48,811 bases of DNA from a virus (taxonomy: Duplodnaviria; Heunggongvirae; Uroviricota; Caudoviricetes). The position numbers were made by a program, and so were the translations under genes. Shown here one piece after another: positions 2,796 through 21,596 of the stretch. The stretch is taken from the IMG/VR virus record IMGVR_UViG_2706794677_000013; one strand, given 5' to 3'. Position 1 is the stretch's first letter; each line of letters starts with the position of its first letter. Below the pieces are notes generated by a model that did no database searches, was not told where the DNA came from, and was given only the letters and a program-made list of their open reading frames with translations.

Positions 2796-5388
2796 TTGCA
2801 TATTCCTTAGCCCAGCGGGGCAGTGATAACGTCTTAATAGCTGGCCATTCATCGGTATTGAGGCAGTCAGCCAGGGTTCGCAGATTGCGGTGATATTCCA
2901 GCTGACCTGCCAGTTTTGCTTCTTCGCCCATCATGAAAATTTCAACCGGATAACGTCCGCATTCAATAGTTGTGCTGGCAACCAGAAAAACGAAAGTTGG
3001 CTGCACTCCAAACTGTGCTTCATAACCGTCACTGTAGAATGCATCCTGAACGTGATAGCGGTAGTCGTAATAAGCGGTTTTGAATCGTTGAATATCCGCC
3101 GTAGTTTTCACGTCCATGATCCAGTGAAATTCAGGGATAATTTTGTCCGGACGGCACCGACACAAAATTGCTGTTTCAGGATCTTCCCAGTAAATTGATG
3201 ATTCAGCGTGTCCGGCGCTTTCAACAAGCCATTGCCCCAGCGGCAAAGCCATAACGCTCTGATACATGAGTTCAATTTTCCGGCCTTCTTCGGCAGTGAT
3301 AACCGTTTTTCCTGTGCTTGCGCATTCCCTCAGAAACGCTTTCTCTTCTTCTTTTCCGGAGTTTGTCCGGCGGTTAAATTCAGGTGCTACGATAAAGCGG
3401 TTACTGAATTCTTCCGGCTCAAGTACCCGGCAGTGGAAAGCGGTTCCTAAATCGAGCGTTTTTGTCTTTGTGGTGTCCACGGGGGCATTTTTACGCCACA
3501 AATACAGTGCCGGAGTATCAGCAATGTCATCGAGCTGAGACTTACTGACACCGGGACCCGCGTGGTAATTCTCATTCGAAATTCCGTAATAAATACCTGG
3601 CTCTATGTCTTCTACGATTACGGGATCTGCGACTTCGCCAGTTTCATCACTGCAATCGCGATGCGGATCGCTGCCAGCATTCTCATTGTGCGGATGTTCA
3701 GCGCCTTCCATTTCCTCCGGATCATTTTCCTTAGCTTCAACCTGACTCTCTTCATCGAATGTTTCCTGGTATGTTGCGTCGCCCATCACCGCACCACAGT
3801 CAGGGCAGTTATCCCCGCCAGTCTGGCCGCAGGCATTGCAGGCTATTTCCGGTTCCTGTTGCACTACTGGCTCAGGTTGATTCATATCCGGGCTGGTTTT
3901 TTCCGTTTCTGGCTGGTTCTGGTACACACAATCGCGAGTCTGGATCCCCTTTACCCATTTCGGATCGTTCGGGTCGCTAATTCCGTCAACAAATTCACCA
4001 CGTGATGCAGCAAGCAATTTATCGGCATCGACAGGATTTTTTGATGGAATGTTTTTCCGGGCTTCATGGAGTTCTGCCCGCAGTTCCTGATATTTCGCAT
4101 CAACAGAATTTACCTGTGACTGAGCATCCAGCGGCTGCGTGTCCTGATGATGTTCAGTTGCGTCCGGTTCCATTGTTTCAGCCTCTCCCTGTTCAACTGC
4201 CGTTGTTCCAGATGGTTGCGGTTTTTCTTCATCATCCTGTTTTCCTTCTTCTGTTACTCGCTGCGGCATCGGGGCAGAGGAGCGACCGCAGGCAATATCC
4301 ACGATTTCCGGATCAGGGTTGGCATGATCGGTTTCAGTCAGTACTTTGTTCAGATATTCAGTGACGTGCGCGGGGATGACCTCGATCCCAATTGGTGCTT
4401 CTTTTACGGACGCAACCACGATGGCGCGGGAATAATCCAGCCCGCCAGGCATGGTGATGAATTTGTCGCGGAAAACAGAAAAGGGCGGTTTATTTTCAGC
4501 GATAATTTCCTCAATGCGTTTAGCGTGTGCCGGATGAAGGTTATAGATGTCCAGATCCATTGAACGGGCCAGTACGCCAGTGGCTACGTCCCGCGCCAGT
4601 GACGTCAGATCGTGTACGAAACCTTCGCCGCGATCGGTGAGGTTTCCGCCGCCAGCATTAGCACCGGAAGCCGTGCGAGTGATGTGTGAAACACGATTAC
4701 CCTTCATCCACTCTTTTGTCAGCAGTCCTCGATCGGTGTAGTCAGCGTTCAGGTATGCTTCGAAAAAAGCAGTTATCAGTCCCAGGTTTGAATTACCAGG
4801 ATTAGGGAAAACTTTGTCAGTGTCACGAACCAGTTTGTGGAGTTCGCGAATTTCCAGCGGGTCGAGCAGGCTGGTTTTGTGGGAAACAGCCAGGGCAGTA
4901 ACAGCCGGTAGTTCTTCAGCCCGAGCAATGTGTAATGCCTGGAGTCCGTCGCGTGAAACGTGCGTTACCGGTTTTTCGCTGCCGTGTTGAGCAAGCCAAC
5001 GAATGGGCAGTTCCTGGCCAGAAATTGGGAGTAGCATATTCTCCTCAATCTCAGTCATGTCTTCGCCGTTGACGTTGGTATTGCCTTGATAGTGAGCGTT
5101 GTCTGGTGCTGCTCCCGGTTTTAGTTCCCATGTCATGGAGTCTTTGCTGAGTTGATAGCGTTCACTCCAGGTAAAATCGATCTCACCTTCAGCGGGCAGG
5201 TCATTAACGACAGGAAAATTCGTGGCAACAGCTTTAAAATAGCTGCTCAGTTTTTTACCTGACTTAACGATCAGGTAGTCCAGAGTGGCACAGGTCGATT
5301 CAAAATCGTTGCTTGCCCACAGGACGACGTCAGGTTCACCGGATGATTTTTTCGCTTTCCGTAACAGGAAGAGTGGTTTTGTGCTCAT
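2788..5388 (-). CDS. recE: RecE exonuclease VIII, 866 aa
   Basis: 866-aa ORF with acidic/Cys-rich central region and C-terminal nuclease domain, immediately upstream of recT on the same strand (recET operon arrangement). Confidence 0.88.
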
Positions 5389-5489
5389 TGTTTTTTAACC
5401 TCAACTCAGATTAAAATTCGTTTTGTTCAGTGAATGATCTTGCCGGATACACACTGTTCATAGCCTGCGCCATACGCAGGCTATTTCTT

Positions 5490-5765
5490 TCAGATTTCAC
5501 CTTTTAATTTCATTGCAATTAGAGTTGCCAGAAATTCGGCTTTTTTTTCTGCGGGCAGATTCTTTCCGATATGCACCAGGCACATTTTTTTGACACCTTC
5601 ATCAAGTGTTTTTACGTTGCCTGATGGACCATCGATATCAACCACAGTGAATGGGGTTTCTTTATTTTCTGTTTTAATTACGTAGCCAATGCGCTTTCCT
5701 TCCAGATTCACCTCGTGAACAATGTCATCGGTAGTTACAACAGTGGCTTCATAATTGGTAATCAT
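5490..5765 (-). CDS. racC: RacC-like small protein, 91 aa (start at MITNYEA)
   Basis: Position upstream of recE and sequence recollection. Confidence 0.7.
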   Translation of the reverse strand: MITNYEATVVTTDDIVHEVNLEGKRIGYVIKTENKETPFTVVDIDGPSGNVKTLDEGVKKMCLVHIGKNLPAEKKAEFLATLIAMKLKGEI

Positions 5766-5839
5766 GTTTTTCTCCTTAATTAAGGTTGAGCGAATACCTG
5801 CCATTTCTGGCATAAATTCAGTTTCGAATAGTCAATTAA

Positions 5840-6010
5840 TTAAAGTTCATGTGCCATCTGGTCTTTTTCGGCACAAGCTTCACTGCAATATTTTCTCGGT
5901 TCGTCTTTTGATAAAATCCCGTGCATGAAGTGAAGCATTCTTTCAATAGCTTTGCTTTCTTCAACGTCTTTTTTGCAAAGGTGGTAAGCACATTTTATTT
6001 TCTTAGTCAT
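5840..6010 (-). CDS. ydaE: YdaE-like 56-aa Cys-rich (zinc-binding-type) protein
   Basis: Hand translation of the reverse complement gives [56 protein letters not shown]; its ATG overlaps the kilR stop (ATGA); below the 60-aa cutoff of the ORF track. Confidence 0.6.
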   Translation of the reverse strand: MTKKIKCAYHLCKKDVEESKAIERMLHFMHGILSKDEPRKYCSEACAEKDQMAHEL

Positions 6011-6231
6011 CACCATGACTCCGCCTTTACAGGTAAACCATCACGACCGAGGAAGACTTTAATCATGCGGTCAGTAATGCATGTTTTTGTGGTCAGGTTA
6101 CGAATATATAGTTTTCGCTTTTTAATATTGTTTGCCGAGGCAATATATGTCCGGCCTTCATGAAGAACATAATCGCCAGGAGTCACACACTGACGTGGTA
6201 TTTCATCAGTTCCGAAGTGATGTGCAATCAT
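6010..6231 (-). CDS. kilR: KilR-like cell-division inhibitor, 73 aa (start at MIAHHF)
   Basis: Sequence recollection of Rac KilR; location between sieB and racC. Confidence 0.8.
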
Positions 6232-6672
6232 AATTATCTCCATTTTTACAAATGAACTTTGTTGATGCGGTGCCTGGTGCCTCCAGGTGACTGCAACCAG
6301 TTAACAATTACAGTCGGCTTTCCCACCCAAACCAATAAGGACTAACATGACTTTTAACTGTGCCACGTGCGCTTAGCCGCATTCACCGCATCACAAAATT
6401 CACTTTAAAAAGGGCGGACATCAGCCGAACTTCAAGAAAAAAACTGATGCCGCCAGGACTACACACAGCAATGTCGTTATTTACAACCGGAGGCGCACTC
6501 CCACCATTTAAATTTAACAGACAAGACCGACTCTTTATGGATATCGGAAATGCGCCTTCGTGTTGTGCCCGGTTTTATTTCACCACCTCCGGGCTTCGGT
6601 GGTCTCGGCTATACCCCTACAGCGAGAGCTTGTGTTAACATTTCAATACCCTTACAGTTGAGAGTTATTGAT

Positions 6673-7161
6673 ATGTTGGATGTATTTACTCCATTGTTGA
6701 AACTTTTTGCTAACGAGCCACTCGAAATACTTATGTATACGATTATCATTTTTGGTCTCACTCTCTGGCTGATACCGAAAGAGTTTACTGTCGCATTCAA
6801 TGCTTATACTGAAATACCTTGGCTCTTTCAGATTATCGTTTTTGCCTTTTCTTTCGTGGTCGCCATTTCCTTCTCAAGATTGCGAGCACATATTCAAAAG
6901 CATTATTCATTACTACCAGAGCAACGAGTATTGCTTCGTTTATCTGAGAAAGAAATCGCTGTATTTAAAGATTTCCTTAAAACAGGAAATCTTATTATCA
7001 CTTCTCCTTGCCGTAACCCGGTTATGAAAAAATTAGAACGGAAGGGCATCATTCAACATCAGAGTGATAGCGCAAACTGTTCTTATTATCTCGTCACCGA
7101 AAAATACTCCCATTTTATGAAGTTATTCTGGAACAGCAGGAGTAGACGTTTTAATCGTTAG
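6673..7161 (+). CDS. sieB: SieB-like superinfection exclusion protein, 162 aa (start at MLDVFTP), membrane protein
   Basis: Hydrophobic N-terminal half; sequence recollection of SieB; ATG verified by frame from the ORF track. Confidence 0.8.
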   Translation: MLDVFTPLLKLFANEPLEILMYTIIIFGLTLWLIPKEFTVAFNAYTEIPWLFQIIVFAFSFVVAISFSRLRAHIQKHYSLLPEQRVLLRLSEKEIAVFKDFLKTGNLIITSPCRNPVMKKLERKGIIQHQSDSANCSYYLVTEKYSHFMKLFWNSRSRRFNR

Positions 7162-7323
7162 CTTACTGTGTGCTTCTCCAACCATCGGCGCGCACCAGTT
7201 TCGGTTTTAAATGTTTTGCTTTTGGTATACGTCATGGCAGTGAACGTTCCATCCTGGTTGGGGAACACGCCGCACACCAGGGATTCGTTGTTGCCGAGGT
7301 CGATTTTTTGCATTTTGCGAATC

Positions 7324-7458
7324 TCACATCTTGTTGCTGTGTATAGCGACTTCTGCCTGCCAGAGATCCCAGTCGTTGCTGCGTAAAGCCTGCACAGCCT
7401 GGTTGTAAGTGATACCGCAACAATCCATCAAATACTGAACTACTTCGTAATGCACCAT
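7324..7458 (-). CDS. Small YdaF-like ORF (start at MVHYEV)
   Basis: Short minus-strand ORF in the region between sieB and racR; weak recollection only. Confidence 0.3.
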   Translation of the reverse strand: MVHYEVVQYLMDCCGITYNQAVQALRSNDWDLWQAEVAIHSNKM

Positions 7459-7748
7459 CTTATCTCTCCCCTTAACGCCGGGTGGCGGAACTGAAACCTG
7501 CTGCACTGCAAAATCTGAACCCTGCCGTCATGTTCATACGCCTCGGGCTGGCTACTTAACCCCTGACCACTGCCTGGTAACTCGAAGTATTGCCCTGCGT
7601 TCTGTGGGGCGGGGTGGGTTGGTAGGTATATAATGTACTTTGTGTTCATTGATGTAAAGTACTATAAGTACATTTTGTGTGTAAAAAAATGAGATGGGAT
7701 AAAGTGAAGCACAAACCCGGAGGGGGACGCTACCGGATTTATGCTGGT

Positions 7749-8186
7749 TTAAGAGGCTTTTTGTTTTTTCTTTCGTGCTAGCTCTTCGTAAATTGCATTG
7801 TACTTCTGTTTTTTCTCCTCAAGAGTTTTTAAAAGTTCATCTGTCTCACTGTCAGGGAGCTCGTCCAGAAGGTCAATGATGATTTTTTGTCTTGGATTTA
7901 ACTCCTGATAGAAACGTACCTGTCCACTTTCTTCTGTATCCTCTCCCAAAAGATAGGTTGGTGTTGTTCCAATGAGTGTTGCTAATTCCCTTAATTTCTC
8001 TCGGCGAGGAATTGTTTCGCCATTAAACCATTTGCTAACCGCTTTTGGTGTTAATTTCATTCGACGGGCAATTTCTGCCTGCCTTCCATGTTGTTCATAA
8101 CCAGCGTTTTCACAGGCTAGCGCAAGCCTACTGGCGAACTCTTTACGCGCTTTATCTTCATGAACCATAAGTTCAATGATATTCAC
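7749..8186 (-). CDS. racR: RacR-like prophage repressor, HTH (Xre-type) N-terminal domain
   Basis: HTH-like segment (QAEIARRMKLTPKAVSKWFNGE); divergent from the ydaS-ydaT operon. Confidence 0.7.
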   Translation of the reverse strand: MNIIELMVHEDKARKEFASRLALACENAGYEQHGRQAEIARRMKLTPKAVSKWFNGETIPRREKLRELATLIGTTPTYLLGEDTEESGQVRFYQELNPRQKIIIDLLDELPDSETDELLKTLEEKKQKYNAIYEELARKKKQKAS

Positions 8187-8247
8187 TCTTGAATGTACTG
8201 TCAGTTCTGTTATAGCATGTACTCAAAGTTCACATTGTGAGGGTGAT
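8187..8247. promoter_or_regulatory. Divergent promoter/operator region between racR (leftward) and ydaS (rightward)
   Basis: 61-bp AT-rich intergenic region between divergently oriented regulator genes; no operator sequences verified. Confidence 0.4.
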
Positions 8248-8502
8248 ATGAACCAGAAAACACTTGAAGATGTAATCAAAACTGTTCGCGTTTCTGTTGT
8301 GGCCGACGTTTGTGGTGTCAGCCAAAGAGCAATCTACAAATGGATGGATAACGGAAAATTGCCTCGCACAGAATATACCGGCGAAACAAATTACGCTGAA
8401 AAAATCGCTCATGCATCAAACGGATTATTTTCTGCTGATGTAATTTTAACTATTGGCAGAAATAAAACTACTACGAAAAAGCTGATGGGAGTTGATTCAT
8501 GA
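8248..8502 (+). CDS. ydaS: YdaS-like Cro-type HTH protein (start at MNQKTLED)
   Basis: Small HTH protein (VCGVSQRAIYKWMDNGKLP) first in the rightward operon; ATG at 8248 preceded by gtgaggg. Confidence 0.7.
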   Translation: MNQKTLEDVIKTVRVSVVADVCGVSQRAIYKWMDNGKLPRTEYTGETNYAEKIAHASNGLFSADVILTIGRNKTTTKKLMGVDS

Positions 8503-8921
8503 AAATCAAGCATGAGCACATCGAGTCAGTGTTGTTAGCCCTGGCAGCCGAAAAAGGGCAGGCATGGGTAGCCAATGCCATTACTGAAGAATATCTGCGC
8601 CAGGGGGGCGGCGAATTGCCCCTGGTACCAGGCAAGGACTGGAATAATCAGCAGAATATCTATCACCGTTGGTTGAAAGGTGAAACGAAAACGCAAAGAG
8701 AAAAAATTCAGAAGCTGATCCCAGCAATTCTGGCAATCCTTCCGCGCGAGCTGCGTCACCGACTCTGCATCTTCGATACCCTGGAACGCCGTGCATTACT
8801 GGCGGCGCAGGAAGCGTTAAGTACGGCAATTGATGCGCATGATGATGCAGTCCAAGCCGTTTACCGGAAAGCGCATTTCAGCGGCGGCGGGTCTTCCGAC
8901 GATTCTGTCATTGTTCATTAA
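8499..8921 (+). CDS. ydaT: YdaT-like protein, 140 aa
   Basis: ORF overlapping the ydaS stop by 4 nt; sequence recollection. Confidence 0.65.
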   Translation: MKIKHEHIESVLLALAAEKGQAWVANAITEEYLRQGGGELPLVPGKDWNNQQNIYHRWLKGETKTQREKIQKLIPAILAILPRELRHRLCIFDTLERRALLAAQEALSTAIDAHDDAVQAVYRKAHFSGGGSSDDSVIVH

Positions 8922-8933
8922 GCAAAAGTTTCC

Positions 8934-9791
8934 ATGCTGTTTGTGCTTATTCTAAGCCACCGGGCAGCATCATACGGGGCAATTATGGCCGCATTACCAT
9001 ACATGCAACTGTACATAGCTGATTACCTGGCTGACACCATGCATTTGTCAGCAGAGGAGCATGGTGCGTATTTGTTGCTGATGTTCAATTACTGGCAAAC
9101 AGGAAAGCCAATACCTAAAAACAGGCTGGCAAAAATTGCCCGTCTGACTAACGAGCGATGGGCTGATGTTGAACCATCCTTGCAGGAGTTTTTTTGCGAT
9201 AACGGCGAGGAATGGGTGCATCTTCGGATTGAGGAAGATCTGGCATCAGTCAGGGAAAAATTAACCAAAAAATCAGCCGCAGGAAAAGCATCTGTTCAGG
9301 CCAGAAGAAGCAGAAAGGAAGCAGATGTTCAAACAAAACAAGAGAGAAATTTAACAGGTGTTCAAACAGATGTTGAAGTGGTGTTTGAACATGATGTCAA
9401 CACAAAGGCAACTAATAAAGATACAGATAAAGATCTAAAAACAGATCCCCCCCTAAATCCCCCCCGGGGGAATCGAGGTGTCAAAAAGTTTGACCCTCTG
9501 GATATTGCTTTGCCGAACTGGATTTCTGTCTCGCTTTGGCGTGAGTGGGTTGAATTTCGCCAGGCATTGCGAAAACCGATTCGAACGGAGCAGGGCGCTA
9601 ACGGGGCGATACGGGAGCTGGAAAAATTCCGCCAGCAGGGTTTTTCACCTGAGCAGGTGATTCGACACAGCATCGCCAATGAATACCAGGGCTTGTTCGC
9701 GCCGAAAGGTGTTCGACCTGAGACGTTACTCCGACAGGTTAACACCGTCTCGTTACCGGATAGTGCGATCCCGCCAGGCTTCAGGGGGTAA
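8934..9791 (+). CDS. ydaU: YdaU-like phage replication protein (DUF1376-type), 285 aa
   Basis: Sequence recollection; followed 6 nt later by a DnaC-like ATPase gene (replication module arrangement). Confidence 0.7.
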   Translation: MLFVLILSHRAASYGAIMAALPYMQLYIADYLADTMHLSAEEHGAYLLLMFNYWQTGKPIPKNRLAKIARLTNERWADVEPSLQEFFCDNGEEWVHLRIEEDLASVREKLTKKSAAGKASVQARRSRKEADVQTKQERNLTGVQTDVEVVFEHDVNTKATNKDTDKDLKTDPPLNPPRGNRGVKKFDPLDIALPNWISVSLWREWVEFRQALRKPIRTEQGANGAIRELEKFRQQGFSPEQVIRHSIANEYQGLFAPKGVRPETLLRQVNTVSLPDSAIPPGFRG

Positions 9792-9797
9792 CTGACC

Positions 9798-10224
9798 ATG
9801 AAAAATATTGCGACAGGCGACGTTCTTGAACGTATCCGCAGACTGGCCCCGTCACATGTAACCGCGCCATTCAAGACGGTAGCGGAGTGGCGCGAGTGGC
9901 AACTTTCCGAAGGCCAGAAACGTTGTGAGGAGATCAACCGTCAGAATCGTCAGTTGCGGGTGGAAAAAATTCTGAATCGCTCTGGCATCCAGCCATTGCA
10001 CCGCAAATGCTCGTTTTCGAATTACCAGGTGCAGAACGAAGCGCAGCGATACGCGTTGAGTCAGGCGAAATCCATCGCTGATGAACTGATGACCGGGTGT
10101 ACAAATTTTGCGTTCAGCGGAAAACCTGGTACCGGGAAGAACCACTTAGCGGCAGCTATCGGGAATCGCCTGCTGAAAGACGGTCAGACAGTGATTGTGG
10201 TTACCGTGGCTGATGTTATGAGCG
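9798..10224 (+). CDS. ydaV: YdaV-like DnaC/IstB-family helicase loader, 5' part only (runs into N gap)
   Basis: Walker A motif GKPGTGKNHLAAAIG; ORF truncated by N run at 10225. Confidence 0.75.
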
Positions 10225-10474
10225 NNNNNNNNNNNNNNNNNNNNNNNNNNNNNNNNNNNNNNNNNNNNNNNNNNNNNNNNNNNNNNNNNNNNNNNNNNNN
10301 NNNNNNNNNNNNNNNNNNNNNNNNNNNNNNNNNNNNNNNNNNNNNNNNNNNNNNNNNNNNNNNNNNNNNNNNNNNNNNNNNNNNNNNNNNNNNNNNNNNN
10401 NNNNNNNNNNNNNNNNNNNNNNNNNNNNNNNNNNNNNNNNNNNNNNNNNNNNNNNNNNNNNNNNNNNNNNNNNN
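10225..10474. other. Run of 250 N
   Basis: Literal n characters. Confidence 1.
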
Positions 10475-10694
10475 GCGTTAATTCAGGTTGGATGGCTGGT
10501 CGAAAATGACGGAGGGCTTTCTCTACCTAACTTTGAACGTCATAACGGAAAAAGCTCTAAAAAAAACGGGCGGTTACAAACGAGCGAGTAACAAAAATAC
10601 GCGAACTGAAACGAAAAGGTAACGCTGCCAGCGTTACACAAACGGATCAAAAAGCGTTACCAGAGGAAGAGGAAGAGGAAGATCTAAATACTGA

Positions 10695-11030
10695 TCTCCC
10701 CCTCGCCAAAAACGAGCGTCTAAAAAATTCGAGCCGGAGGCTATTGAGCTGCCCGATTGGTTGCCGGAAACACTCTGGCATGAGTGGGTCCGGTTCAGAC
10801 AGGCATTGCGAAAACCGATTCGAACGGAGCAGGGCGCTAACGGGGCGATACGGGAACTGGAAAAATTCCGTCAGCAGGGTTTTACACCTGAGCAGGTGAT
10901 TCGACACAGCATCGCCAATGAATACCAGGGCCTGTTCGCGCCGAAAGGTGTTCGGCCTGAGACGTTGCTCCGACAGGTTAACACCGTCTCGTTGCCGGAC
11001 AGTGCGATCCCGCCAGGCTTCAGGGGGTAA
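10695..11030 (+). pseudogene. Second, diverged copy of the YdaU-like C-terminal region (fragment; in-frame TGA immediately upstream at 10692..10694)
   Basis: Translation ...KKFEPEAIELPDWLPETLWHEWVRFRQALRKPIRTEQGANGAIRELEKFRQQGFTPEQVIRH... is near-identical to the C-terminus of the 8934..9791 protein. Confidence 0.5.
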
Positions 11031-11036
11031 CGGACC

Positions 11037-11325
11037 ATGAAAAATATTGCGACAGGCGGCGTTCTGGAACGCATCCGCCGACTGACCCCGCCACATGTAA
11101 CCGCCCCATTCAGAACGGTAGCGGAGTGGCGCGAGTGGCAACTTGCTGAAGGCCAGAAACGTAGCGAGGAGATCAACCGCCTGAATCGCCAGTTGCGGGT
11201 GGAAAAAATTCTGAATCGCTCAGGCATCCAGCCGTTGCACCGTAAATGCTCGTTTGCGAATTACCAGGTGCAGAACGACGGCCAGCGATACGCGTTAAGC
11301 CAGGCGAAATCCATCGCCGATGAAC
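11037..11325 (+). CDS. Second copy of YdaV-like DnaC-family gene, 5' part only (runs into N gap)
   Basis: MKNIATGGVLERIRRL... about 90 percent identical at protein level to the start of the 9798 gene; truncated by N run. Confidence 0.6.
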
Positions 11326-11575
11326 NNNNNNNNNNNNNNNNNNNNNNNNNNNNNNNNNNNNNNNNNNNNNNNNNNNNNNNNNNNNNNNNNNNNNNNNNNN
11401 NNNNNNNNNNNNNNNNNNNNNNNNNNNNNNNNNNNNNNNNNNNNNNNNNNNNNNNNNNNNNNNNNNNNNNNNNNNNNNNNNNNNNNNNNNNNNNNNNNNN
11501 NNNNNNNNNNNNNNNNNNNNNNNNNNNNNNNNNNNNNNNNNNNNNNNNNNNNNNNNNNNNNNNNNNNNNNNNNNN
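11326..11575. other. Run of 250 N
   Basis: Literal n characters. Confidence 1.
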
Positions 11576-11591
11576 AGTTTCAGGAGGATTT

Positions 11592-12014
11592 ATGGCGAAA
11601 CCTTTTACTCCCGAACAGCGGGAAGAACTGAAGACGCGAATTGTGGAACTCGTGCATCAGGACGGTCGGGTCACGATTCGGCAGTTGTCAGATGAAACAG
11701 GTATCAGTCGTGCGTCTGTCGGTCGCTTATGCATAGAACTGGTCGCAAGTGGTGATGTATATAATTCTGGCTACGGCTTATTCCCGTCTGAACAGGCTCG
11801 CAAGGACTGGCAAAGCGCCCGCAAAAAACTCTCGAGAGTAAAGGTGAGGAAACCGGTTGTTGTTGATCCGGACCTTATCTGGTCATTACCTGACGGAGAA
11901 ATACGCCGCTACGACAGGCGCCTGAATATAATCTGTCGCGAGTGCCGGAAGAGCGAAGCTATGCAGCGTGTACTGGCTTTCTATCAGGGTAATTTTCAGG
12001 AGGCGATACTGTGA
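11592..12014 (+). CDS. Hypothetical nin-region protein, 140 aa, C-terminal CRECRK motif (paralog A of 15721..16137)
   Basis: ATG at 11592 preceded by caggagg; the ORF track merges it with upstream sequence only because the N run happens to keep frame. Confidence 0.6.
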   Translation: MAKPFTPEQREELKTRIVELVHQDGRVTIRQLSDETGISRASVGRLCIELVASGDVYNSGYGLFPSEQARKDWQSARKKLSRVKVRKPVVVDPDLIWSLPDGEIRRYDRRLNIICRECRKSEAMQRVLAFYQGNFQEAIL

Positions 12015-12071
12015 ATGAAATTAGCTATCAGGCTTCAATTACCGCTGGCATTCGCATCAAAGGAGAGGAGC

Positions 12072-12428
12072 ATGGAAATAAAACCAGAAGATGAGTTAAG
12101 CAATATCGTTTTATTTCCGGTAAAAGAGGATGACCCTCGTAATCAGGTTAATTTTCTTTATGAGCCATCGGAAAGACCATATTGCCATCACGCCTCTGTA
12201 CGGGTTGACGAAAAAGAGCGTCAGGTCCGCTGTAAAATCTGCGGTGCGGTTGTGGAGCCGTTTGACTGGATGCTCTCTGTGGCAAAAAGAGAAACCAGAC
12301 TGGCAGATGATGTAAGGCTATTGCGCCAGGAGGAACAGGAAAGGCGGAGAAATATAGAAAAGCTGATACAGATTGAGCGTAACGCGAAAGCGCGGATACG
12401 CAGGGCGACAAAATCCAGAACTGAATAA
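12072..12428 (+). CDS. Hypothetical protein with CxxC-type Cys pairs and basic coiled-coil C-terminus (start at MEIKPEDE)
   Basis: ATG preceded by aaggagagg; Cys pairs CHH...CKIC. Confidence 0.5.
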   Translation: MEIKPEDELSNIVLFPVKEDDPRNQVNFLYEPSERPYCHHASVRVDEKERQVRCKICGAVVEPFDWMLSVAKRETRLADDVRLLRQEEQERRRNIEKLIQIERNAKARIRRATKSRTE

Positions 12429-12575
12429 TTAAATTTAGCACTGTTAAAAATTTAATCCTTAACCGGAGGGATTTCTGCACCCTCAAATCATCAGGAGACC
12501 ACCCGAAAGGGCGGGGAGCAGTCACACATCTGTTTCCGATAGCCCCGTTCTAATGCTACACTCTTTGATATTTTT

Positions 12576-13262
12576 ATGACCCCAATAAACATATTTATGA
12601 CAGTTGCTGATTTCAAACGGCCCAAATTGGAGCTCCCAAACGGGGCAAACAAACTACTACTGCACTCTTGCTGTGCTCCATGTTCCGGTGAGGTGATGGA
12701 GGCGCTTCAGGCCTCGGGAATCGACTACACCATCTTTTTCTACAACCCGAACATTCATCCTCAGAAAGAGTATTTAATTCGTAAGGATGAGAATATTCGC
12801 TTTGCTGAACAACACGGCGTGCCGTTTATTGATGCTGATTACGACACAGACAACTGGTTTGAACGAGCCAAAGGAATGGAATGGGAGCCCGAACGAGGGA
12901 TCCGTTGCACCATGTGTTTTGACATGCGTTTTGAGCGGACAGCGCTGTACGCCGCTGAAAATGGTTTCAGTGTGATCAGCAGTTCACTGGGCATTTCACG
13001 CTGGAAAAATATGCAGCAGGTTAACGACTGTGGGCGGCGAGCCGTCGCGCATTATCCGGGCATGGTGTACTGGGATTATAACTGGCGCAAGCAGGGCGGC
13101 TCGTCCCGTATGATTGAAATCAGCAAGCGCGAAAAATTCTATCAGCAGGAATATTGTGGCTGTGTGTATTCTCTGCGCGATACCAATCTACACCGCAAAT
13201 CTCAGGGACGCCCTCTTATCAAAATTGGTCAACTCCACTACGGTAAAGAAGAGAAGGAGTGA
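12576..13262 (+). CDS. queH: QueH-like protein (DUF208, epoxyqueuosine reductase family), 228 aa
   Basis: N-terminal [10 protein letters not shown] motif plus later CTMC and EYCGC motifs, which I recognise as the QueH/DUF208 signature. Confidence 0.6.
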
Positions 13263-13489
13263 TTTTATGGGGCACCTTTCTGATTGATTTCATATTGGCG
13301 AGGTAAGTAGAATGACTGCGGGTGCTTGAGGCTATCTGCTTCAGGCATGAACACCAAAAGGCAGATAGAGAAAAGCCCCAGTTAACATTACGCGTCCGGC
13401 AAGACGCTTAACATTAATCTGAGGCCAATTTCATGCTTTGCACATGTAGGTTAGCCTCTTACATGCCGAAAGGCAAGGAGAAGCAGGCT

Positions 13490-13645
13490 ATGAAGCAGCA
13501 AAAGGCGATGTTAATCGCCCTGATCGTCATCTGTTTAACCGTCATAGTGACGGCACTGGTAACGAGGAAAGACCTCTGTGAGGTACGAATCCGAACCGGC
13601 CAGACGGAGGTCGCTGTCTTCGTAGACTACGAATCCAGGAAGTAA
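13490..13645 (+). CDS. hok: Hok/Gef-family membrane toxin, 51 aa (HokD/RelF-like); the longer in-frame ORF from 13433 may be a mok-like leader
   Basis: MKQQKAMLIALIVICLTVIVTALVTRKDLCEVRIRTGQTEVAVF... is a textbook Hok-family sequence; structured leader with stem ctatctgc/gcagatag upstream. Confidence 0.85.
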   Translation: MKQQKAMLIALIVICLTVIVTALVTRKDLCEVRIRTGQTEVAVFVDYESRK

Positions 13646-13721
13646 GAGTGACCGGGCGGGGAGCTGATCCCATCCCCGCCCACCTCTGATGTGTCAGGCA
13701 TCCTCAACGCACCCGCACTTA

Positions 13722-13765
13722 ACCCGCCCATCGCTGTGATCTCTCAGCGTTTCGGCGGGTTTTTT
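13722..13765 (+). terminator. Hairpin plus T-run downstream of hok (intrinsic terminator / hok mRNA 3' fold)
   Basis: cccgcc...ggcggg stem followed by tttttt. Confidence 0.5.
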
Positions 13766-13894
13766 GTTGTTTATTTCCGGTGAATTTGATTCGCGCACCT
13801 TCGCAGATAGAATCGACTCACTTAAGTAGCGCGCAGGGAGAAGAGGGATGGACCCCGAACAGGGGAGAGCTATTTATCTGGAAGGATTCTGAAG

Positions 13895-14182
13895 ATGAAA
13901 ATCGAAGAATTGCGTGAAATTTTTAGTGAAAATGGCCTCTATGCTGTGCGCGTTGAGAATGGAGCGATTGTCAGCCATTGCCGCATTAGATGTTTGCAAT
14001 CTCAACAAAGGAAGAGCGGTGCTGTGTTATTTTATTTTTGTAATGGACTTCTGACGGACGGTTTTATTTTGCGTGAGGACGAATTTGTCACATCATTACG
14101 GGTTTTGAAAGAGATTGGTTTTAAGGCTGGTTTTCTGCTTTTGCTGAAGAATAAACTCATCTACAATCTTGAGCAGGATTGA
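13895..14182 (+). CDS. Hypothetical protein, 95 aa
   Basis: ORF with RBS-like ggaagga upstream; no recognisable family. Confidence 0.4.
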   Translation: MKIEELREIFSENGLYAVRVENGAIVSHCRIRCLQSQQRKSGAVLFYFCNGLLTDGFILREDEFVTSLRVLKEIGFKAGFLLLLKNKLIYNLEQD

Positions 14183-14220
14183 ACTCCTGCTGTGTAACAC
14201 CGTGCCACCGGAGAAAGCCG

Positions 14221-14469
14221 ATGGCACATATACAACTGGTCAAACAAACCTCTTCCGGATTACTTCTCCCGGCGACGCCGGAGAGTTGCGATTTTCTGCA
14301 TCAAATCAAAATAGGTGAGTGGATACACGCAGACTTTAAGCGTGTGTGTAACTACGCATTCCACAAGCGTTTTTTCAAACTCCTGCAACTGGGTTTCGAT
14401 TACTGGACTCCGGTCGGTGGGGCGATCACGCCTCGCGAACGAAAACTGGTGTCCGGTTTCGTTGATTAC
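14221..14469 (+). CDS. DUF1367-like nin-region protein, N-terminal part only (runs into N gap); near-identical to the start of 20088..20687
   Basis: MAHIQLVKQTSSGLLLPATPESCDFLHQIKIGEWIHADFKRV... duplicated at 20088. Confidence 0.55.
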
Positions 14470-14719
14470 NNNNNNNNNNNNNNNNNNNNNNNNNNNNNNN
14501 NNNNNNNNNNNNNNNNNNNNNNNNNNNNNNNNNNNNNNNNNNNNNNNNNNNNNNNNNNNNNNNNNNNNNNNNNNNNNNNNNNNNNNNNNNNNNNNNNNNN
14601 NNNNNNNNNNNNNNNNNNNNNNNNNNNNNNNNNNNNNNNNNNNNNNNNNNNNNNNNNNNNNNNNNNNNNNNNNNNNNNNNNNNNNNNNNNNNNNNNNNNN
14701 NNNNNNNNNNNNNNNNNNN
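14470..14719. other. Run of 250 N
   Basis: Literal n characters. Confidence 1.
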
Positions 14720-14921
14720 GGTGGTGCTGCACCAGATTGTTGATCGCCGGACAGCGTCGATGCGCAGCGTGGGGATGCTGACAAACCTGAACTATGAGGC
14801 CATGAAAACATTGCTCGGCGAGCGGATTATGGATCGCATGACCATGAACGGCGGGCGATGGGTGAATTTTAACTGGGAGAGCTGGCGTCCGAATGTCGTC
14901 CAGCCAGGAATTGAGAAGTAA
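14720..14921 (+). CDS. C-terminal fragment of an unidentified protein whose start lies in the N run (not the C-terminus of the DUF1367-like protein)
   Basis: Open frame from the gap edge to a stop at 14919..14921; differs from the C-terminus of the 20088 protein. Confidence 0.3.
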
Positions 14922-14943
14922 TTTTTACCGGGAGGAAATTTTT

Positions 14944-15705
14944 ATGGAGACTGTTTTTGACGCACTGAAAGCAATGGGAAAAGCCACATCCATAGAACTT
15001 GCTGCGCGACTTGATATCAGTCGTGAAGAAGTGCTGAACGAACTATGGGAACTGAAAAAAGCTGGTTTCGTTGATAAAAGCGCGTACACCTGGCGTGTGG
15101 CTGATAACAACGTTCAGCAGGAACAGCCAATGCAGGCAGAACTGCCGGAAGAAACCACCACGGCAACTGTAGTGAAAATCTCAGAGTGCGATTTAACCGC
15201 GACGATTGAACAACGCGGACCACAAACGGCGGATGAACTGGCTACGCTGTTCGGTACAACATCCCGCAAAGTTGCTTCAACGCTGGCAATGGCAATCAGC
15301 AAAGGACGCCTGATTCGCGTAAACCAGAACAGTAAATTTCGTTACTGCATGCCGGGCGATAATTTACCAGCAGAGCCGAAAGCTGCATCGGTAGCGGAAA
15401 CTGATGGTAAAGCCTTTCCTCAGCCAGCCGGTGTTGCGTTACCAGTACAGGAAGCGGCAACACAGGAAGATATTAAAACAGAAACTGTGGCGGACATTGT
15501 GCAGTCGCTGCCATCGTTTACTGAAACGCAAGCGGATGACCTAGTTTTACCATCGCTGCATATGGCAAACCGCGAACTGCGTCGGGCGAAAAATCATGTC
15601 CAGAAGTGGGAGCGAGTCTGCGCCGCGCTGCGGGAGCTGAACAAGCACCGGGATATTGTCCGACAGATTGTCGATTCCTCCAGTCGTATTGTGTCGGAAA
15701 AGTGA
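14944..15705 (+). CDS. Hypothetical protein with two winged-helix-like segments, 253 aa (start at METVFDAL)
   Basis: ATG at 14944 preceded by gggagg; two HTH-like stretches ([26 protein letters not shown] and [29 protein letters not shown]). Confidence 0.5.
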
Positions 15706-15720
15706 TTGCCGGAGGCGCTT

Positions 15721-16137
15721 ATGGCAAAAGTTTTTACACAGGAAGAGCGTGAAAAAATTAAGGAGCAGGTTGTTGAGTTGGTACGCCAGAGTGGGCGCGA
15801 GACGTTAAGGCAACTGGAGGCCAAGACAGGTGCGACAAGATATCTGATGAGCATTCTTGCCAGAGAGTTGGTTGCCAGTGGCGATGTATACAACTCTGGC
15901 TATGGGTTATTCCCGTCTGAACAGGCTCGTAAGGATTGGAAAAACGCCCGCAAAAAACTATCCAGGGCAAAGGTGAAAAAAACGGTTGTGGTTGATCCTG
16001 ACCTTATCTGGTCATTACCAGACGGAGAAATACGCCGCTATGACAGGCGTCAGAACATAATCTGTCGCGAGTGCCGGAAGAGTGAAGTTATGAAACGTGT
16101 ACTGGCATTTTATCAAGGAAATCTTCGGTATTTATAG
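15721..16137 (+). CDS. Hypothetical nin-region protein (paralog B of 11592..12014), 138 aa
   Basis: ATG at 15721 preceded by ggagg; C-terminal two thirds about 80 percent identical to paralog A, including the CRECRKSE motif. Confidence 0.6.
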   Translation: MAKVFTQEEREKIKEQVVELVRQSGRETLRQLEAKTGATRYLMSILARELVASGDVYNSGYGLFPSEQARKDWKNARKKLSRAKVKKTVVVDPDLIWSLPDGEIRRYDRRQNIICRECRKSEVMKRVLAFYQGNLRYL

Positions 16138-16275
16138 ACGTTACTAGATCAAAGAGCATTAGTTCATATGTAAATTGACATTTTTCTGGCACAGGGGAGA
16201 GCTAGCGTGGTTGTCCGCTTTGTGCCAATAGCGGACATTGCTGGCTCATGGTATGTTAGTTTAAGGAGGCAGGTT

Positions 16276-17298
16276 ATGCCCTGTATTTCGCTGTGGTATA
16301 ATAGTTGCGCAATTGATACAAGGGAGCGTTACATCGTGAAAATTGTTTTCGAGGTTAATGGAAAGAAAGTTCCACTAAAATCTTTAAAATACATAAGCAA
16401 AAAAGATCAACTCGAAGTAATGAAAAACTGGTTCTTTGAAAACTTTGAAGATCCGGCAAATGCTTGTCCGTATGAAAGTAGAGAAGGTGGCTATGCTTAC
16501 ATATATGGCGGGCCGTATGATGCGAGCGAAGAACTACAATCCATCTTCGGTCAATATGTTAAATCTGAGTATATTGAGGAATTAGTAGATGAATTACAAA
16601 CACAATGTTTTGACTGGTCTGGAAACTCAAATAATATAGATGATTGGTACGATGATGATATCTACGACGCTGTAACGTCTTCCGGTAATCCGTATTTAAA
16701 ATTCATTGATAATATCGATAAAATAAAAAAACTTGCAAAAGATAAAACTGAACAACAGCAAAAAAACCACTTGCTTAGTTTGCTCTACACGAATGTTATT
16801 ACAGCTTTGGAAACGCTTTATGTTGAGCTATTCATTAATTCTATAGAGAAAGATGATGTCTACATAGCCAATTGTATAGAAAAAGGTAAGACTGAATTTA
16901 AAGTAAGCAAAGATATTGCTGCGTTGCCTTTCAAGGGTGAACCCATCGAGAAAATTAGGGGAGAGCTAATCAGGTCAATCAAGGAACACTTGATCAGTGC
17001 AAGCTGGCATAGCACTAAAAAGGTAATCGACCGCTATGAAGCTACATTCGATATAAAAGTACAAAAAGACTGTCCGATAGAAGCTATTGAATTGGCAACC
17101 CTCAATCGAAATCACTTAGTGCATCGTGGTGGAAAGGATAAAGAAGGGAACCTCGTAGTGATTACAGACCAGGATCTTGAAACGCTGATTGAAAATGCAT
17201 CGAACCTGGCAATTATGCTCTACAACAGTTTAAATGTAGCAACGAATAAAACCACCATTTTGCAACCAGATGACAAACCGTTCATTCATGAATTTTAA
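16276..17298 (+). CDS. Unknown protein A of an AT-rich two-gene cassette, 340 aa; possible HEPN-like R-x4-H motif (RNHLVH) near the C-terminus
   Basis: Long ORF; ATG at 16276 preceded by a strong RBS (ttaaggagg); markedly AT-rich codon usage compared with flanking phage genes. Confidence 0.65.
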   Translation: MPCISLWYNSCAIDTRERYIVKIVFEVNGKKVPLKSLKYISKKDQLEVMKNWFFENFEDPANACPYESREGGYAYIYGGPYDASEELQSIFGQYVKSEYIEELVDELQTQCFDWSGNSNNIDDWYDDDIYDAVTSSGNPYLKFIDNIDKIKKLAKDKTEQQQKNHLLSLLYTNVITALETLYVELFINSIEKDDVYIANCIEKGKTEFKVSKDIAALPFKGEPIEKIRGELIRSIKEHLISASWHSTKKVIDRYEATFDIKVQKDCPIEAIELATLNRNHLVHRGGKDKEGNLVVITDQDLETLIENASNLAIMLYNSLNVATNKTTILQPDDKPFIHEF

Positions 17299-17313
17299 TA
17301 GCGCAGGTCATAC

Positions 17314-18315
17314 ATGGATATTCGCACACGAAAGACAAAATTTTTAGAGTCGTTAGATTCAACTGAAGTGATACGCAAAGCAGTAAGTCTCGCTATAGAT
17401 TGCATTATTGATAATCATAATAGTAATGAAGATACCCCCTTAGTTATTACCAGCTATGATGATCTCTGTAGAATCCAGGTGCTAAATTATGTACAGGAGT
17501 TTTGCGAAGCTGCATTCCCTGATATGGATGAATATTACTTTAGTCCTAACATACTTCGCATCAACGGCAAGACTAGTGAAGAAGCTTGTATTAACTTAAT
17601 TAAACTCTTAAGAAGTACAAAAGGCATGCTATTCTGGTCCGATGCCCCATCGTGGTTCGCTAGCCTCCCCGACGGATTATTCCATGTTGTTAACATTGAT
17701 CAAAAAATCGTTACTCGCGGCCTTAATAAGAAAAACTCTAAGCCGACAATAATCAATAAAGATTACAGTGTAGATACACTACTATCAGAGCTATTTTTGA
17801 ATGGCGCACACATGGAGCAACCCAACGTACACAACGTTTCTGAGGGAAACATGAAGTTCTATGATGAATGCCATGCTGGATTAATCAGACCAATACCCGC
17901 TCCAATAGGCGCGTCATACGATGAAGAGATCACAATTAATTCTCCAGATTGGCAAAAGCTCGCGTGTGTAGCTTTACGCCGCTATCAGTCGAAGGAATGT
18001 CATGACGGAATGCAATGGGATACAACCGATCATGGTTGGACTGATGTAATCGCGTATCCATTCGTCGAAGAAATACAATCAATGGATAATAGTGGTTATC
18101 GACAATGTTTAGTTGGGCTGGTCACAATAAACAATTCAAATGCAAATTCTCCGTACCTATCTACCGTTTGGATACATCCATTTTATCGCAGGAGAGGGTT
18201 ATTAAGTAAGTTATGGCCAAAATTACAAGAGTTATATGGAAGTAACTTCGAAATTGAGCGACCTAATGAAAATATGAAAGCATTTCTGAAAAGTGCGAAA
18301 CACGCAGATTACTAA
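17314..18315 (+). CDS. Unknown protein B of the AT-rich cassette, 333 aa; C-terminal GNAT-acetyltransferase-like motif (VWIHPFYRRRGLLSKLWPKLQELYG)
   Basis: ORF starts 15 nt after gene A stop (operon-like); AT-rich; motif resemblance by eye only. Confidence 0.65.
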   Translation: MDIRTRKTKFLESLDSTEVIRKAVSLAIDCIIDNHNSNEDTPLVITSYDDLCRIQVLNYVQEFCEAAFPDMDEYYFSPNILRINGKTSEEACINLIKLLRSTKGMLFWSDAPSWFASLPDGLFHVVNIDQKIVTRGLNKKNSKPTIINKDYSVDTLLSELFLNGAHMEQPNVHNVSEGNMKFYDECHAGLIRPIPAPIGASYDEEITINSPDWQKLACVALRRYQSKECHDGMQWDTTDHGWTDVIAYPFVEEIQSMDNSGYRQCLVGLVTINNSNANSPYLSTVWIHPFYRRRGLLSKLWPKLQELYGSNFEIERPNENMKAFLKSAKHADY

Positions 18316-18935
18316 TTTATGAATCAGTCTGTGGAGTTAGGGTTGGTGTGAACAAGTAGGGTAAGAGCCTCAACGTGATGCTATGCCGACCTGCTCCCTG
18401 AGAATTCACACAGAAGGCTGCTAGCAATGTCTGCAGATCGCTCAAAGCGGACTAAAATGTTGGCTTGTTTCTGACTTAGAGCATTTAAGGAAGTGCTGGT
18501 GGTGACTGGTTGTTGTGTTCCATTTCTACAGAATAAAATCACAGAAACTATACCCAATAGTTGTATTGAATCACTGACGAGACAGCCTCATATTTATCAG
18601 GACTGGTGTGCGTCTAATACAGGGGGTTGTCGTGCTGGTTCTCAAATGTGCGCTGGCTATTGCGGCTGTAATGGCAATTTATTGTCTTGCTGTTGTTCTT
18701 ATGGAGCGGCTTTCTGATTGATTACATACTGGCTAGAAAAAAGGTGTTACCTTGGTTTATCTTTGTCCGGCAAGGTGCGCTCATTAATCTTAAGTAAATT
18801 TATTGCTCAAGTATTCAGATTACTTCTTATGGTTGAAGTCTCCTGTCAATGTAGAACCAATATATTTACAAAAATGAGACCCGTCGGGGATAGCCCTGCC
18901 GGGTCTGACTGTTAAAGCATTTTTAATATGATCAT

Positions 18936-19274
18936 CTATTTTTTGGTGCTATAGACTTTTTCGCCCGAAAAGTCTGGAGCGACCCAAAAGTTAATATTAA
19001 ACTGAGCATCATCGCTTAGTTCAACACGGTGCCAGTATTGTGGTGGGCTTGTTGCAAAAGCGCCAGCATTAATGACTACTTTTATCTCCGGTTCAGTAGC
19101 ATTCTCATCAGTAAAACCATAATATGTTACAGTGCCTTCCATTACGCACAACTGCCCAAAAACACCTGCTGCTGTATTATGATGTGTTAATAACGCTGAA
19201 GGTACGTTCTCTTTTGTGAAGAACGGAGTTGAGCGTTTGATTACCCAATCTTTAGGAATTCTCTTGTGTGTCAT
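18936..19274 (-). CDS. Small cupin/DUF1971-like protein (start at MTHKRIPKDW), convergent with the AT-rich cassette
   Basis: Minus-strand ORF; weak recollection of a DUF1971-type family (HHNTAAGVFGQL, PPQYWHRVE). Confidence 0.4.
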   Translation of the reverse strand: MTHKRIPKDWVIKRSTPFFTKENVPSALLTHHNTAAGVFGQLCVMEGTVTYYGFTDENATEPEIKVVINAGAFATSPPQYWHRVELSDDAQFNINFWVAPDFSGEKVYSTKK

Positions 19275-20087
19275 AACCACCTCCTCCAAAACATGCATTA
19301 AAAATGCATCTTTTGGAGGGTTATGTCAAGCTGTTATGAAACACATAATTGATATGTTGATTAGAGGAGAAGATAGAATAAATATGGTTGTTTTTCGTAT
19401 AACTATTTGTTTTACTTTTAGTTTATGCATTCTGTGTGTTAGGAATAAGTTATTAAAGTTTAATCAAAAAATCTCGATGTAGTCCACATAGATTACTGTT
19501 ACTGAACCTTATTGTGTGTATTAGTTGTGTTCTGAAATTTCAGCTTAATTATTTATGATGTATTTTTTAACGATAAATATTTTCCCAGGATACCTTTACT
19601 GTGTATATAAATAAATTATATACGCATAAATAATGTAAAGGCGTCCTTTTAGATATATCTTATCAAATGTTAATGACTTGAGTGGGAAATATGATTCCAG
19701 CAACTTATCATGTGGCTACTTTATAAAAATAATGCCCATATAAAACAACAAGCGAAAAGGATTACGGATAAAAAAGGAGCGAGATGTGCGAACTTGTTAT
19801 TTTCCATGTTTAACCACCTTAAATAATTGATGATGACGGGATGATTGCATCTGTAATGCTTTTATTGAAATGTTATGATAAAAAAGAACTTTTGCATAAC
19901 ATTAAAATGTAATTTATCTAATCGTTTTTAATAATAAGTGTCGTATTTCTATCCTTGTACCAGCTATTTGATATGTAGTGTTTGTTCATGCTATGTGGGG
20001 CTTTACACCATAGCCAGTTTATTTATACTTTATTCGTCAGCCTGAACAACTGGCATCTGCTGCGCTGCGCCATCGAGAGATTGAGAA

Positions 20088-20687
20088 ATGGCGCATATAC
20101 AACTGGTCAAACAAACCTCTTCTGGTTTACTTCTCCCGGCGACGCCGGAGAGTTGCGATTTTCTGCATCAAATCAAAATAGGTGAGTGGATACACGCAGA
20201 CTTTAAGCGTGTGCGTAACTACGCATTCCACAAGCGTTTTTTCAAACTCCTGCAACTGGGATTCGATTACTGGACTCCGGTCGGTGGGGCGATCACGCCT
20301 CGCGAACGAGAACTGCTGTCTGGTTTCGTTGATTACCTGTGCGAATCAGTTGGTCGGGAACACACGCCAGCCCTGAGTGATGCCGCAGAGCAATACCTTA
20401 ACACCGTTGCGACTCGTAGAACCCGGGATACGGCGTTGCTAAAGTCGTTTGAGGCTTTCCGCGAGTGGGTAACCATTCAGGCCGGATTTTACACCGAGCA
20501 TATTTATCCGGACGGTAGCCGTGGGCGTCGGGCAAAATCCATCGCTTTTGCGAATATGGACGAAGTCGAGTTTCAGCAGGTTTATAAATCTGTACTGAAT
20601 GTGCTGTGGAACTGGATTCTGTTCCGTAAATTCTCCTCTCAGGAGGAAGTTGAAAATGTGGCCGCACAACTACTGGAGTTTGCGTAA
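20088..20687 (+). CDS. DUF1367-like nin-region protein, 199 aa, complete copy
   Basis: Complete ORF directly upstream of the DUF1364-like and Q-like genes. Confidence 0.6.
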   Translation: MAHIQLVKQTSSGLLLPATPESCDFLHQIKIGEWIHADFKRVRNYAFHKRFFKLLQLGFDYWTPVGGAITPRERELLSGFVDYLCESVGREHTPALSDAAEQYLNTVATRRTRDTALLKSFEAFREWVTIQAGFYTEHIYPDGSRGRRAKSIAFANMDEVEFQQVYKSVLNVLWNWILFRKFSSQEEVENVAAQLLEFA

Positions 20688-20977
20688 TGGTGAATTTACG
20701 TAAAGCGGCTAAAGGCCAGATGTGCCAGATCAGAATCCCTGGCTACTGCAATCACAATCCCGAAACCTCTGTGCTGGCGCATTACAGGCTGGCGGGGACG
20801 TGCGGAACAGCGACAAAACCACATGATATGCAGGCGGCGATAGCCTGTAGCTCATGCCACGATCTAATCGACGGGCGGGTAAAAACCAGCGATTACACCA
20901 AAGAAGAATTGCGCCTGATGCATGCTGAAGGGGTTTTTCGCACACAAGAAATCTGGAGAAAGAAAGGTCATTTATGA
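20687..20977 (+). CDS. DUF1364-like (YbcO-like) Cys-rich nin-region protein, 96 aa
   Basis: Cys pairs CQIRIPGYC and CSSCHDLIDGR; overlapping start/stop with neighbours. Confidence 0.5.
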   Translation: MVNLRKAAKGQMCQIRIPGYCNHNPETSVLAHYRLAGTCGTATKPHDMQAAIACSSCHDLIDGRVKTSDYTKEELRLMHAEGVFRTQEIWRKKGHL

Positions 20978-21516: not shown

Positions 21517-21596
21517 TTTCTTACGTATAAACTGCTTCAATTTTGCTATGCTTCGCAAAGCTGTATCGCGAGGCGGATTGCAGACATGGACATCGT

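Follow-up and report, generated by a model that had tools for sequence, protein, structure and literature searches.

The stretch of DNA analysed here, IMG/VR virus record IMGVR_UViG_2706794677_000013 (48,811 nucleotides (nt); hereafter the window), carries the ydaU-ydaV replication region of a lambdoid prophage of Escherichia coli, and at 10225-14719 this region is interrupted by a block of partial genes and runs of N. The window was compared with the closed genomes JP538 (L001), NCTC10444 (L010) and FDAARGOS_944 (L003) and with two N-free draft contigs, IMG/VR UViG_2711768017_000020 (L048) and IMG/VR UViG_2671180821_000008 (L022), while presence was counted in a survey set of 5,426 complete E. 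coli genomes, usually at a cut-off of at least 80% coverage. All genes given below lie on the + strand apart from one cargo gene, and the gene identities of both prophage modules described here, including YbcO and DUF1133, were confirmed by Pfam and Rfam profile matches.

To the left of the block lie an intact ydaU (8934..9791), whose DUF1376 product is replication-initiator-like (Pfam DUF1376, E 2.7e-26) and which is 99.9% identical to the annotated ydaU of JP538 and NCTC10444, and the first 427 of 747 nt of ydaV (9798..10224), which encodes a DnaC/IstB-like ATPase (Pfam IstB_IS21) and is collinear with NCTC10444, JP538 and L048. To the right, the window resumes with nt 546-747 of ydaV (14720..14921; 100% identical to L048 from its position 10341), followed by a DUF1627 gene (14944..15705; Pfam DUF1627, E 2e-100; annotated in JP538 and NCTC10444), a DUF977 gene (15706..16137; Pfam DUF977, E 3.3e-31), the start of which relatives annotate at 15721, and further downstream an intact DUF1367 gene (20088..20687; Pfam DUF1367, E 6.4e-98). 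The 4,495-nt block between the two parts of ydaV consists of three runs of N, at 10225-10474, 11326-11575 and 14470-14719, and of two pieces of 851 nt (10475-11325) and 2,894 nt (11576-14469). Each of the three runs is exactly 250 nt long, as the first-pass annotation of the window had stated.

The smaller piece holds the 3' part of a replication-initiator gene (10475..11030), which is a frameshifted pseudogene with stops in every frame, and nt 1-289 of 747 of another ydaV copy (ydaV', 11037..11325), recognised by its translation. The larger piece starts 16 nt upstream of a second DUF977 gene (DUF977', 11592..12014, 140 amino acids (aa); Pfam DUF977, E 1.1e-33) and ends with nt 1-249 of 600 of a second DUF1367 gene (DUF1367', 14221..14469; Pfam DUF1367 profile positions 1-82 of 198), to which the intact gene at 20088 is the counterpart. 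At the first N run, the left flank stops at ydaV nt 427 and the right flank lies inside the frameshifted replication gene; at the second, the left flank stops at ydaV' nt 289; at the third, the left flank stops at DUF1367' nt 249 and the right flank is the ydaV 3' end from nt 546. The first-pass annotation had held that each run cuts a gene, which applies to both sides of the first and third runs and to the left side of the second, but not to the right side of the second, where DUF977' is complete.

A BLAST search of the window against itself, a comparison akin to the dot-plot that the annotation had proposed as a check, returned exactly three internal similarities, all of which involved the flagged region and lay where they had been placed. 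Segment 9534-10086 matched 10773-11325 (92.0% over 553 nt), 14221-14469 matched 20088-20336 (96.8% over 249 nt), and 11732-11997 matched 15861-16126 (86.1% over 266 nt), with E-values of 1e-85 to 0 that are far beyond chance. The near-exact duplicate of the DUF1367 start at 20088 was found as described. The second copy of the ydaU-ydaV stretch is likewise real but had been drawn too long: the strong similarity sets in at 10773 instead of 10695 and, in its partner, stops at 10086 instead of 10224, while only a weak and gapped similarity reaches about 10667. The 140-aa DUF977' protein had been called a diverged paralogue of the product of 15721-16137, and the two proteins are indeed only 75% identical over 136 aa; they are, however, counterparts in two prophages and not paralogues within one element. 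Judged by their sequences, all three similarities are homology between two lambdoid prophage modules.

Outside the block, the window was collinear with sequenced prophages. JP538 matched 1-1655, 1912-10222, 14720-24932 and 25200-35341 at 99.7-100% identity, collinearity with NCTC10444 reached the end of the window, and 1-10224 plus 14720-48811 were together collinear at 99.8-100% with closed genomes and with L048, the latter matching at 99.99-100%. Based on collinearity with annotated NCTC10444, the backbone runs intR-xisR-ralR-recT-recE-racC-kilR-sieB-ydaT-ydaU-ydaV-DUF1627-DUF977, then two hypothetical cargo genes and DUF1971, and onwards through DUF1367-YbcO-DUF1133-lysis genes-trkG-terminase-head-tail-J. 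This includes the content and order expected of Rac, from intR and xisR via recET, kilR and sieB to ydaT, ydaU and ydaV, and by these measures the backbone is an E. coli lambdoid prophage of the Rac type, full-length and an ordinary member of that group; the Rac prophage of E. coli K-12 is a shortened form. Of the complete genomes, 680 contained the right 23.6 kb of the window at a coverage of at least 80%. The window begins at the intR end and ttcA lies outside it, but ttcA adjoins the prophage in the closed relatives JP538 and NCTC10444, and I infer the same integration site here. Compared with these full-length Rac-type prophages at ttcA, the backbone is 99.8-100% identical and collinear with the same gene order, while the window differs from them in its scaffold gaps and in the inserted block at 10225-14719.

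In NCTC10444, JP538 and L048, the bases corresponding to 10224 and 14720 are separated by 118 base pairs (bp) of ydaV instead of 4,495 nt, and removal of the block restored collinearity with all three of these gap-free sequences. Splicing the 118 bp of L048 between 10224 and 14720 gave a 747-nt open reading frame (ORF) for an intact, 248-aa DnaC/IstB-like YdaV with a Walker A motif (GKPGTGKN) and a Walker B motif (DLLVLDEIG), the latter of which falls in the missing stretch. With adjacent genes for a DUF1376 protein (YdaU) and an IstB/DnaC-like AAA+ protein (YdaV), ydaU-ydaV is predicted to form a phage replication module of initiator and DnaC-like helicase loader. A search for the reconstructed ydaU-ydaV-DUF1627 junction found it with at least 80% coverage in 1,363 of the 5,426 complete genomes, 117 of which reached at least 99% identity, with best matches at 100% coverage and 99.9% identity. 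The order given by the scaffold fared differently, as in none of the 5,426 genomes did a single place cover 80% or more of window 8000-17000. Public assemblies contain the exact YdaU protein in 10,058 blocks, and all 10 distinct gene neighbourhoods in which it was found showed ydaU, ydaV (248 aa), DUF1627, DUF977, variable cargo, DUF1367, YbcO and DUF1133, with the duplicated fragments in none of them. The earlier warning that the gene order between about 9.8 and 16.2 kb should not be trusted was therefore well founded, given that the window becomes collinear with closed genomes once the block is taken out.

The two pieces inside the block turned out to belong together at another locus. Both were 100% identical to the single N-free contig L022, on which they are collinear and 456 bp apart, the missing 456 bp being the remainder of ydaV'. 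They were also collinear at 98.5-99.9% identity in the closed genomes FDAARGOS_944 and FDAARGOS_943, with the same spacing in FDAARGOS_944, where they lie in a different lambdoid prophage that adjoins ybhA in the gal-mod region. The order on this ybhA side is integrase, excisionase, Rha, cI/cro, ydaT', a 262-aa replication gene, ydaV', DUF977', a hypothetical gene, QueH, hokD, a 95-aa gene, DUF1367', YbcO', DUF1133', tRNAs and lysis genes, and the junction of the second prophage was found in 58 complete genomes. The second N run thus stands for 456 bp of ydaV', and its flanks are continuous in one prophage, contrary to the earlier claim that sequence on either side of each run does not continue; that claim did hold for the first and third runs, the flanks of which were collinear in no reference.

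The frameshifted replication gene at 10475-11030 has an intact homologue of 262 aa in FDAARGOS_944 (L003, 19776-20564), while the frameshifted form itself was found at 100% identity in several IMG/VR isolate contigs (L022, L023, L025 and L026). Related loci in Shigella-type genomes are riddled with insertion sequence (IS) elements, and because of this and of the frameshift the second element is read as a decayed prophage. By sequence comparison the inserted pieces are an already sequenced type of such a prophage: the defective lambdoid prophage beside ybhA in FDAARGOS_944 and FDAARGOS_943, and related remnants in Shigella, hold both pieces collinearly at 98.5-99.9% and in the same gene order. 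The window differs from the ybhA-side prophage in having a frameshift in the replication gene, in lacking 456 bp of ydaV', and in containing nothing else of that prophage. The exact DUF977' protein occurred in 6,560 blocks, almost all of them on contigs shorter than 10 kb (longest contig below 2 kb in 1,270 blocks, 2-5 kb in 3,418, 5-10 kb in 1,557, and all longer classes together in 315), so short contigs bounded by repeats, such as the 2.9-kb piece, are the usual form in which this module is assembled.

The positions at which the pieces end point to the reason for the breaks. The two ydaV copies were compared using proxies, with L048 or NCTC10444 standing for the main copy and L022 for the second, and were 90.8% identical over nt 1-282, 97.3% over nt 283-722, and 52% over the last 25 nt. 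Within this 440-nt core of high identity, exact shared runs of 62, 80 and 142 nt were found. All four inner contig ends, at ydaV nt 289 (left contig of the second prophage), 427 (left contig of the main prophage), 546 (right contig of the main prophage) and 746 (right contig of the second prophage), fell within or at the edges of the core, and the contig ends thereby coincide with sequence repeated between the copies. The left contig of the second prophage stops 7 nt into the 62-nt exact run that it shares with the main ydaV. In addition, base 10223, the second-to-last base of the left main contig, is C, the allele of the second copy, and not T, and this is the sole difference from L048 in the left part of ydaV in the window. 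Such an allele is what would be expected if the repeat had collapsed and the consensus had been called from a mixture of reads of the two copies, and it places both of them in the read set. Deriving the assembler's k-mer size from the contig-end overhangs was also tried but rejected, as overhangs of 7, 82 and 80 nt are inconsistent and the proxies come from other strains.

Taken together, the region at 10225-14719 is best explained as a scaffolding artefact of a draft assembly, in which contigs bounded by repeats were put in the wrong place, and not as a feature of the genome; I give this a rough probability of 0.82. The sequenced strain carries a full-length Rac-type lambdoid prophage as backbone, and the same read set would also have held a second, decayed lambdoid prophage whose closest closed relatives sit beside ybhA in the gal-mod region. 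As the proxies show, the two prophages share the near-identical 440-nt ydaV core. The assembler would have failed to resolve this core, with Rac ending up as two contigs, one left and one right, and the second prophage as two of 851 nt and 2,894 nt. A later ordering or scaffolding step would then have inserted the two short contigs of the second prophage where Rac has the homologous sequence, stringing left main contig, left second contig, right second contig and right main contig together with fixed spacers of 250 N. The first and third N runs would be artificial joins, from the left main contig to a contig of another prophage and from a contig of the second prophage to the right main contig, respectively. 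Going by the proxies, the true Rac sequence joins 10224 to 14720 via 118 bp of ydaV, and the two inserted contigs are neighbours with 456 bp between them, located elsewhere on a chromosome. The ordering step probably placed contigs where they best matched a reference or according to the position of their centres; placement on a reference is favoured because the spacer length is fixed and because a simple short-insert paired-end model does not obviously give the observed order. That the contigs stem from two related lambdoid prophages had been one of the options offered in the first-pass annotation, and every test that was run supported it.

Four observations count against this explanation. Firstly, the simple short-insert paired-end model, which was tried and discarded, does not predict the order of left main, left second, right second and right main contig. 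Secondly, the explanation does not account for the fixed length of 250 N, which is unlike the gaps of estimated size elsewhere in the window; when the literature was searched for a convention of '250 Ns' as spacer, all matches were unrelated and concerned nanoseconds. Thirdly, no clear exact repeat with the Rac backbone was found at the outer ends, 10475 and 14469, so that a third copy of a repeat or low coverage has to be assumed there. In other drafts the break lies 154-167 nt further upstream than 10475, a hint that a third element shares a repeat here. Lastly, the sequences that stand in for the two ydaV copies were taken from other strains.

The same artefact could have arisen with inserted contigs from a second strain in the read set, due to a mixed culture, contamination or a metagenomic sample. 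This is unlikely, although it survives better than the other alternatives: the IMG/VR isolates with the exact inserted sequence and those with the exact main cargo sequence did not overlap, the module is of a kind typical for decayed prophages of the Shigella type, and the mixed allele at 10223 means that both copies were in the read set but says nothing about a shared chromosome. Against a second strain, the IMG/VR lists contain only predicted viral contigs with exact 50-mer matches, which makes their non-overlap weak evidence. Several ydaV/nin-type loci are moreover normal in E. coli, with a median of 2 and up to 14 such places per genome, and FDAARGOS_944, which bears the second prophage, has 3. 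Homology between prophages also surrounds the other scaffold gaps of the window, which is what a single poly-lysogenic genome would show, and a second element on the same chromosome as the Rac prophage is consequently favoured.

Far less probable still is that the order of the scaffold is real, with a replication/nin segment of a second lambdoid prophage inserted into the ydaV of Rac to give a strain-specific nested mosaic with three truncated gene copies and with its junctions hidden under the N runs. Lambdoid prophages do recombine and are mosaic, each run of 250 N might conceal a junction, and one of the three could also accommodate the 118 bp of ydaV that are missing. However, all three of the required junctions are N runs, so that no novel junction is seen in sequenced bases, and at two of them (ydaV nt ~427 with the middle of the replication gene, and DUF1367' nt 249 with ydaV nt 546) the sequences to be joined lack homology, while homologous exchange would replace a segment and not duplicate it. 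The arrangement was absent from independent genomes (0 of 5,426 complete genomes and 0 of the 10 distinct YdaU neighbourhoods), and the second N run has 250 nt where the real spacing is 456 bp. Contig ends located in the core and a base carrying the allele of the other copy are predicted by the collapse of a repeat but not by an insertion. A recombinant of two prophage modules, which the first-pass annotation had also considered, thus found no support in any sequenced junction or other genome. Deliberate base-for-base masking of continuous real sequence, a further option of that annotation to which the identical round length of the three runs and the mention of a few N-masked stretches in the description of one collection lend some colour, can be dismissed with near certainty, as N lengths differ from real lengths in relatives of 99.8-100% identity (256/254, 267/253, 31/32, 1/10 and 250/456), the two sides of the first and third runs are not collinear but belong to different prophages with the gene order running backwards, and the duplicated partial genes would be left unexplained.

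The remaining four of the seven N runs in the window, which the first-pass annotation had not listed, behave as ordinary gaps. They are 256 nt in ralR/DUF1187 (1656-1911; 254 bp in a closed relative), a single N in rrrD (24445; 10 bp), 267 nt between the lysis genes and trkG (24933-25199; 253 bp), and 31 nt in J (43960-43990; 32 bp). These lengths are near but not equal to the true missing lengths, so the four runs are scaffold gaps of estimated size and not masks, and in the block the N runs are likewise placeholders, with 250 nt standing for 456 bp in the second run and the whole block for 118 bp. The gaps in ralR/DUF1187, rrrD and ydaV lie within DNA with 94-97% identity to the second prophage, the first two at 94-96%. 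At the 31-N gap in J, identity to NCTC10444 drops exactly at the gap, from 99.97% (25200-43959) to 96.6% (43991-48811, covering J, lom and the tail fibre). To judge from this step in identity, the gap is a mosaic boundary, and it was probably another inter-prophage repeat that broke the assembly.

Besides DUF977' and DUF1367', the larger inserted piece carries several genes of the second prophage. A hypothetical 118-aa gene (12072..12428) had only a sub-threshold Pfam match, but an ORF of the same size is called there in closed genomes. It is followed by a cargo gene for QueH, an epoxyqueuosine reductase (12576..13262; Pfam QueH, E 1.9e-65; annotated in FDAARGOS_944), the true start of which is probably 12597, because relatives annotate a 221-aa product. 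A hok/sok type I toxin-antitoxin locus occupies 13320..13645, with the sok RNA at 13320-13495 (Rfam sok, 117 bits) and the hok ORF at 13433-13645 (Pfam HOK_GEF, E 9.8e-23). A 95-aa gene at 13895..14182 is labelled Rem-like, as related loci encode a product of equal length at this position with a precomputed PF27490 Rem match, while a local Pfam search of the product from the window gave no match.

In the Rac backbone, a variable slot between DUF977 and DUF1367 contains two unannotated genes and a DUF1971 gene. The first encodes 363 aa (16207..17298) with a sub-threshold match to HEPN_RES_NTD1, the second 333 aa (17314..18315) with a sub-threshold match to GNAT, and the DUF1971 gene is on the - strand (18936..19298). 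Other Rac-type prophages have a methylase plus AAA_15/21 ATPase, GmrSD_N, an S8 peptidase plus AAA protein, KilA-N/BstA_C or NA37 in the same slot, which by its contents looks like a hot spot for cargo or defence genes. PADLOC returned no match for the unannotated ORFs of both modules, and the 363-aa/333-aa pair may be undescribed cargo. Further downstream, Rfam placed an STnc100 small RNA at 22264-22450, downstream of the Q-like DUF1133 gene. A separate observation concerns JARKOR010000130.1, a contig of 5,219 bp binned into a 'Candidatus Nanosynbacter' metagenome-assembled genome: it is 98.7-99.9% identical to E. coli Rac prophage DNA, matches the window at 5353-7624, 8493-9029 and 20330-21422, and is, going by these matches, very likely a mis-binned or contaminant contig.

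The homology of lambdoid prophages is known to fragment short-read assemblies of E. coli (PMC7175801), and the pattern described here is a known kind of draft-assembly artefact without a new biological feature. It shares with the repeat-induced breaks in drafts of poly-lysogenic E. coli and Shigella the contig ends in near-identical lambdoid stretches, the short contigs of 0.85 and 2.9 kb, and the N gaps, and the same module sits on contigs below 10 kb in thousands of public drafts. Instead of staying unplaced, the small contigs were here set into the homologous gap of another prophage with fixed spacers of 250 N, and this placement accounts for the apparent partial duplication. Taken at face value, the scaffold has three truncated genes (ydaV twice, and DUF1367), a false partial duplication of replication and nin modules, and a prophage that is 4.4 kb too long, and gene calling, prophage typing, paralogue counts and any inference of recombination between prophages would be led astray. 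The value of the finding is one of caution only, in that the order, truncations and apparent duplications at about 10.2-14.7 kb should not be taken as real. The correct reading is a single intact Rac-type module, ydaU-ydaV-DUF1627-DUF977, together with fragments of a second, decayed prophage that belong elsewhere.

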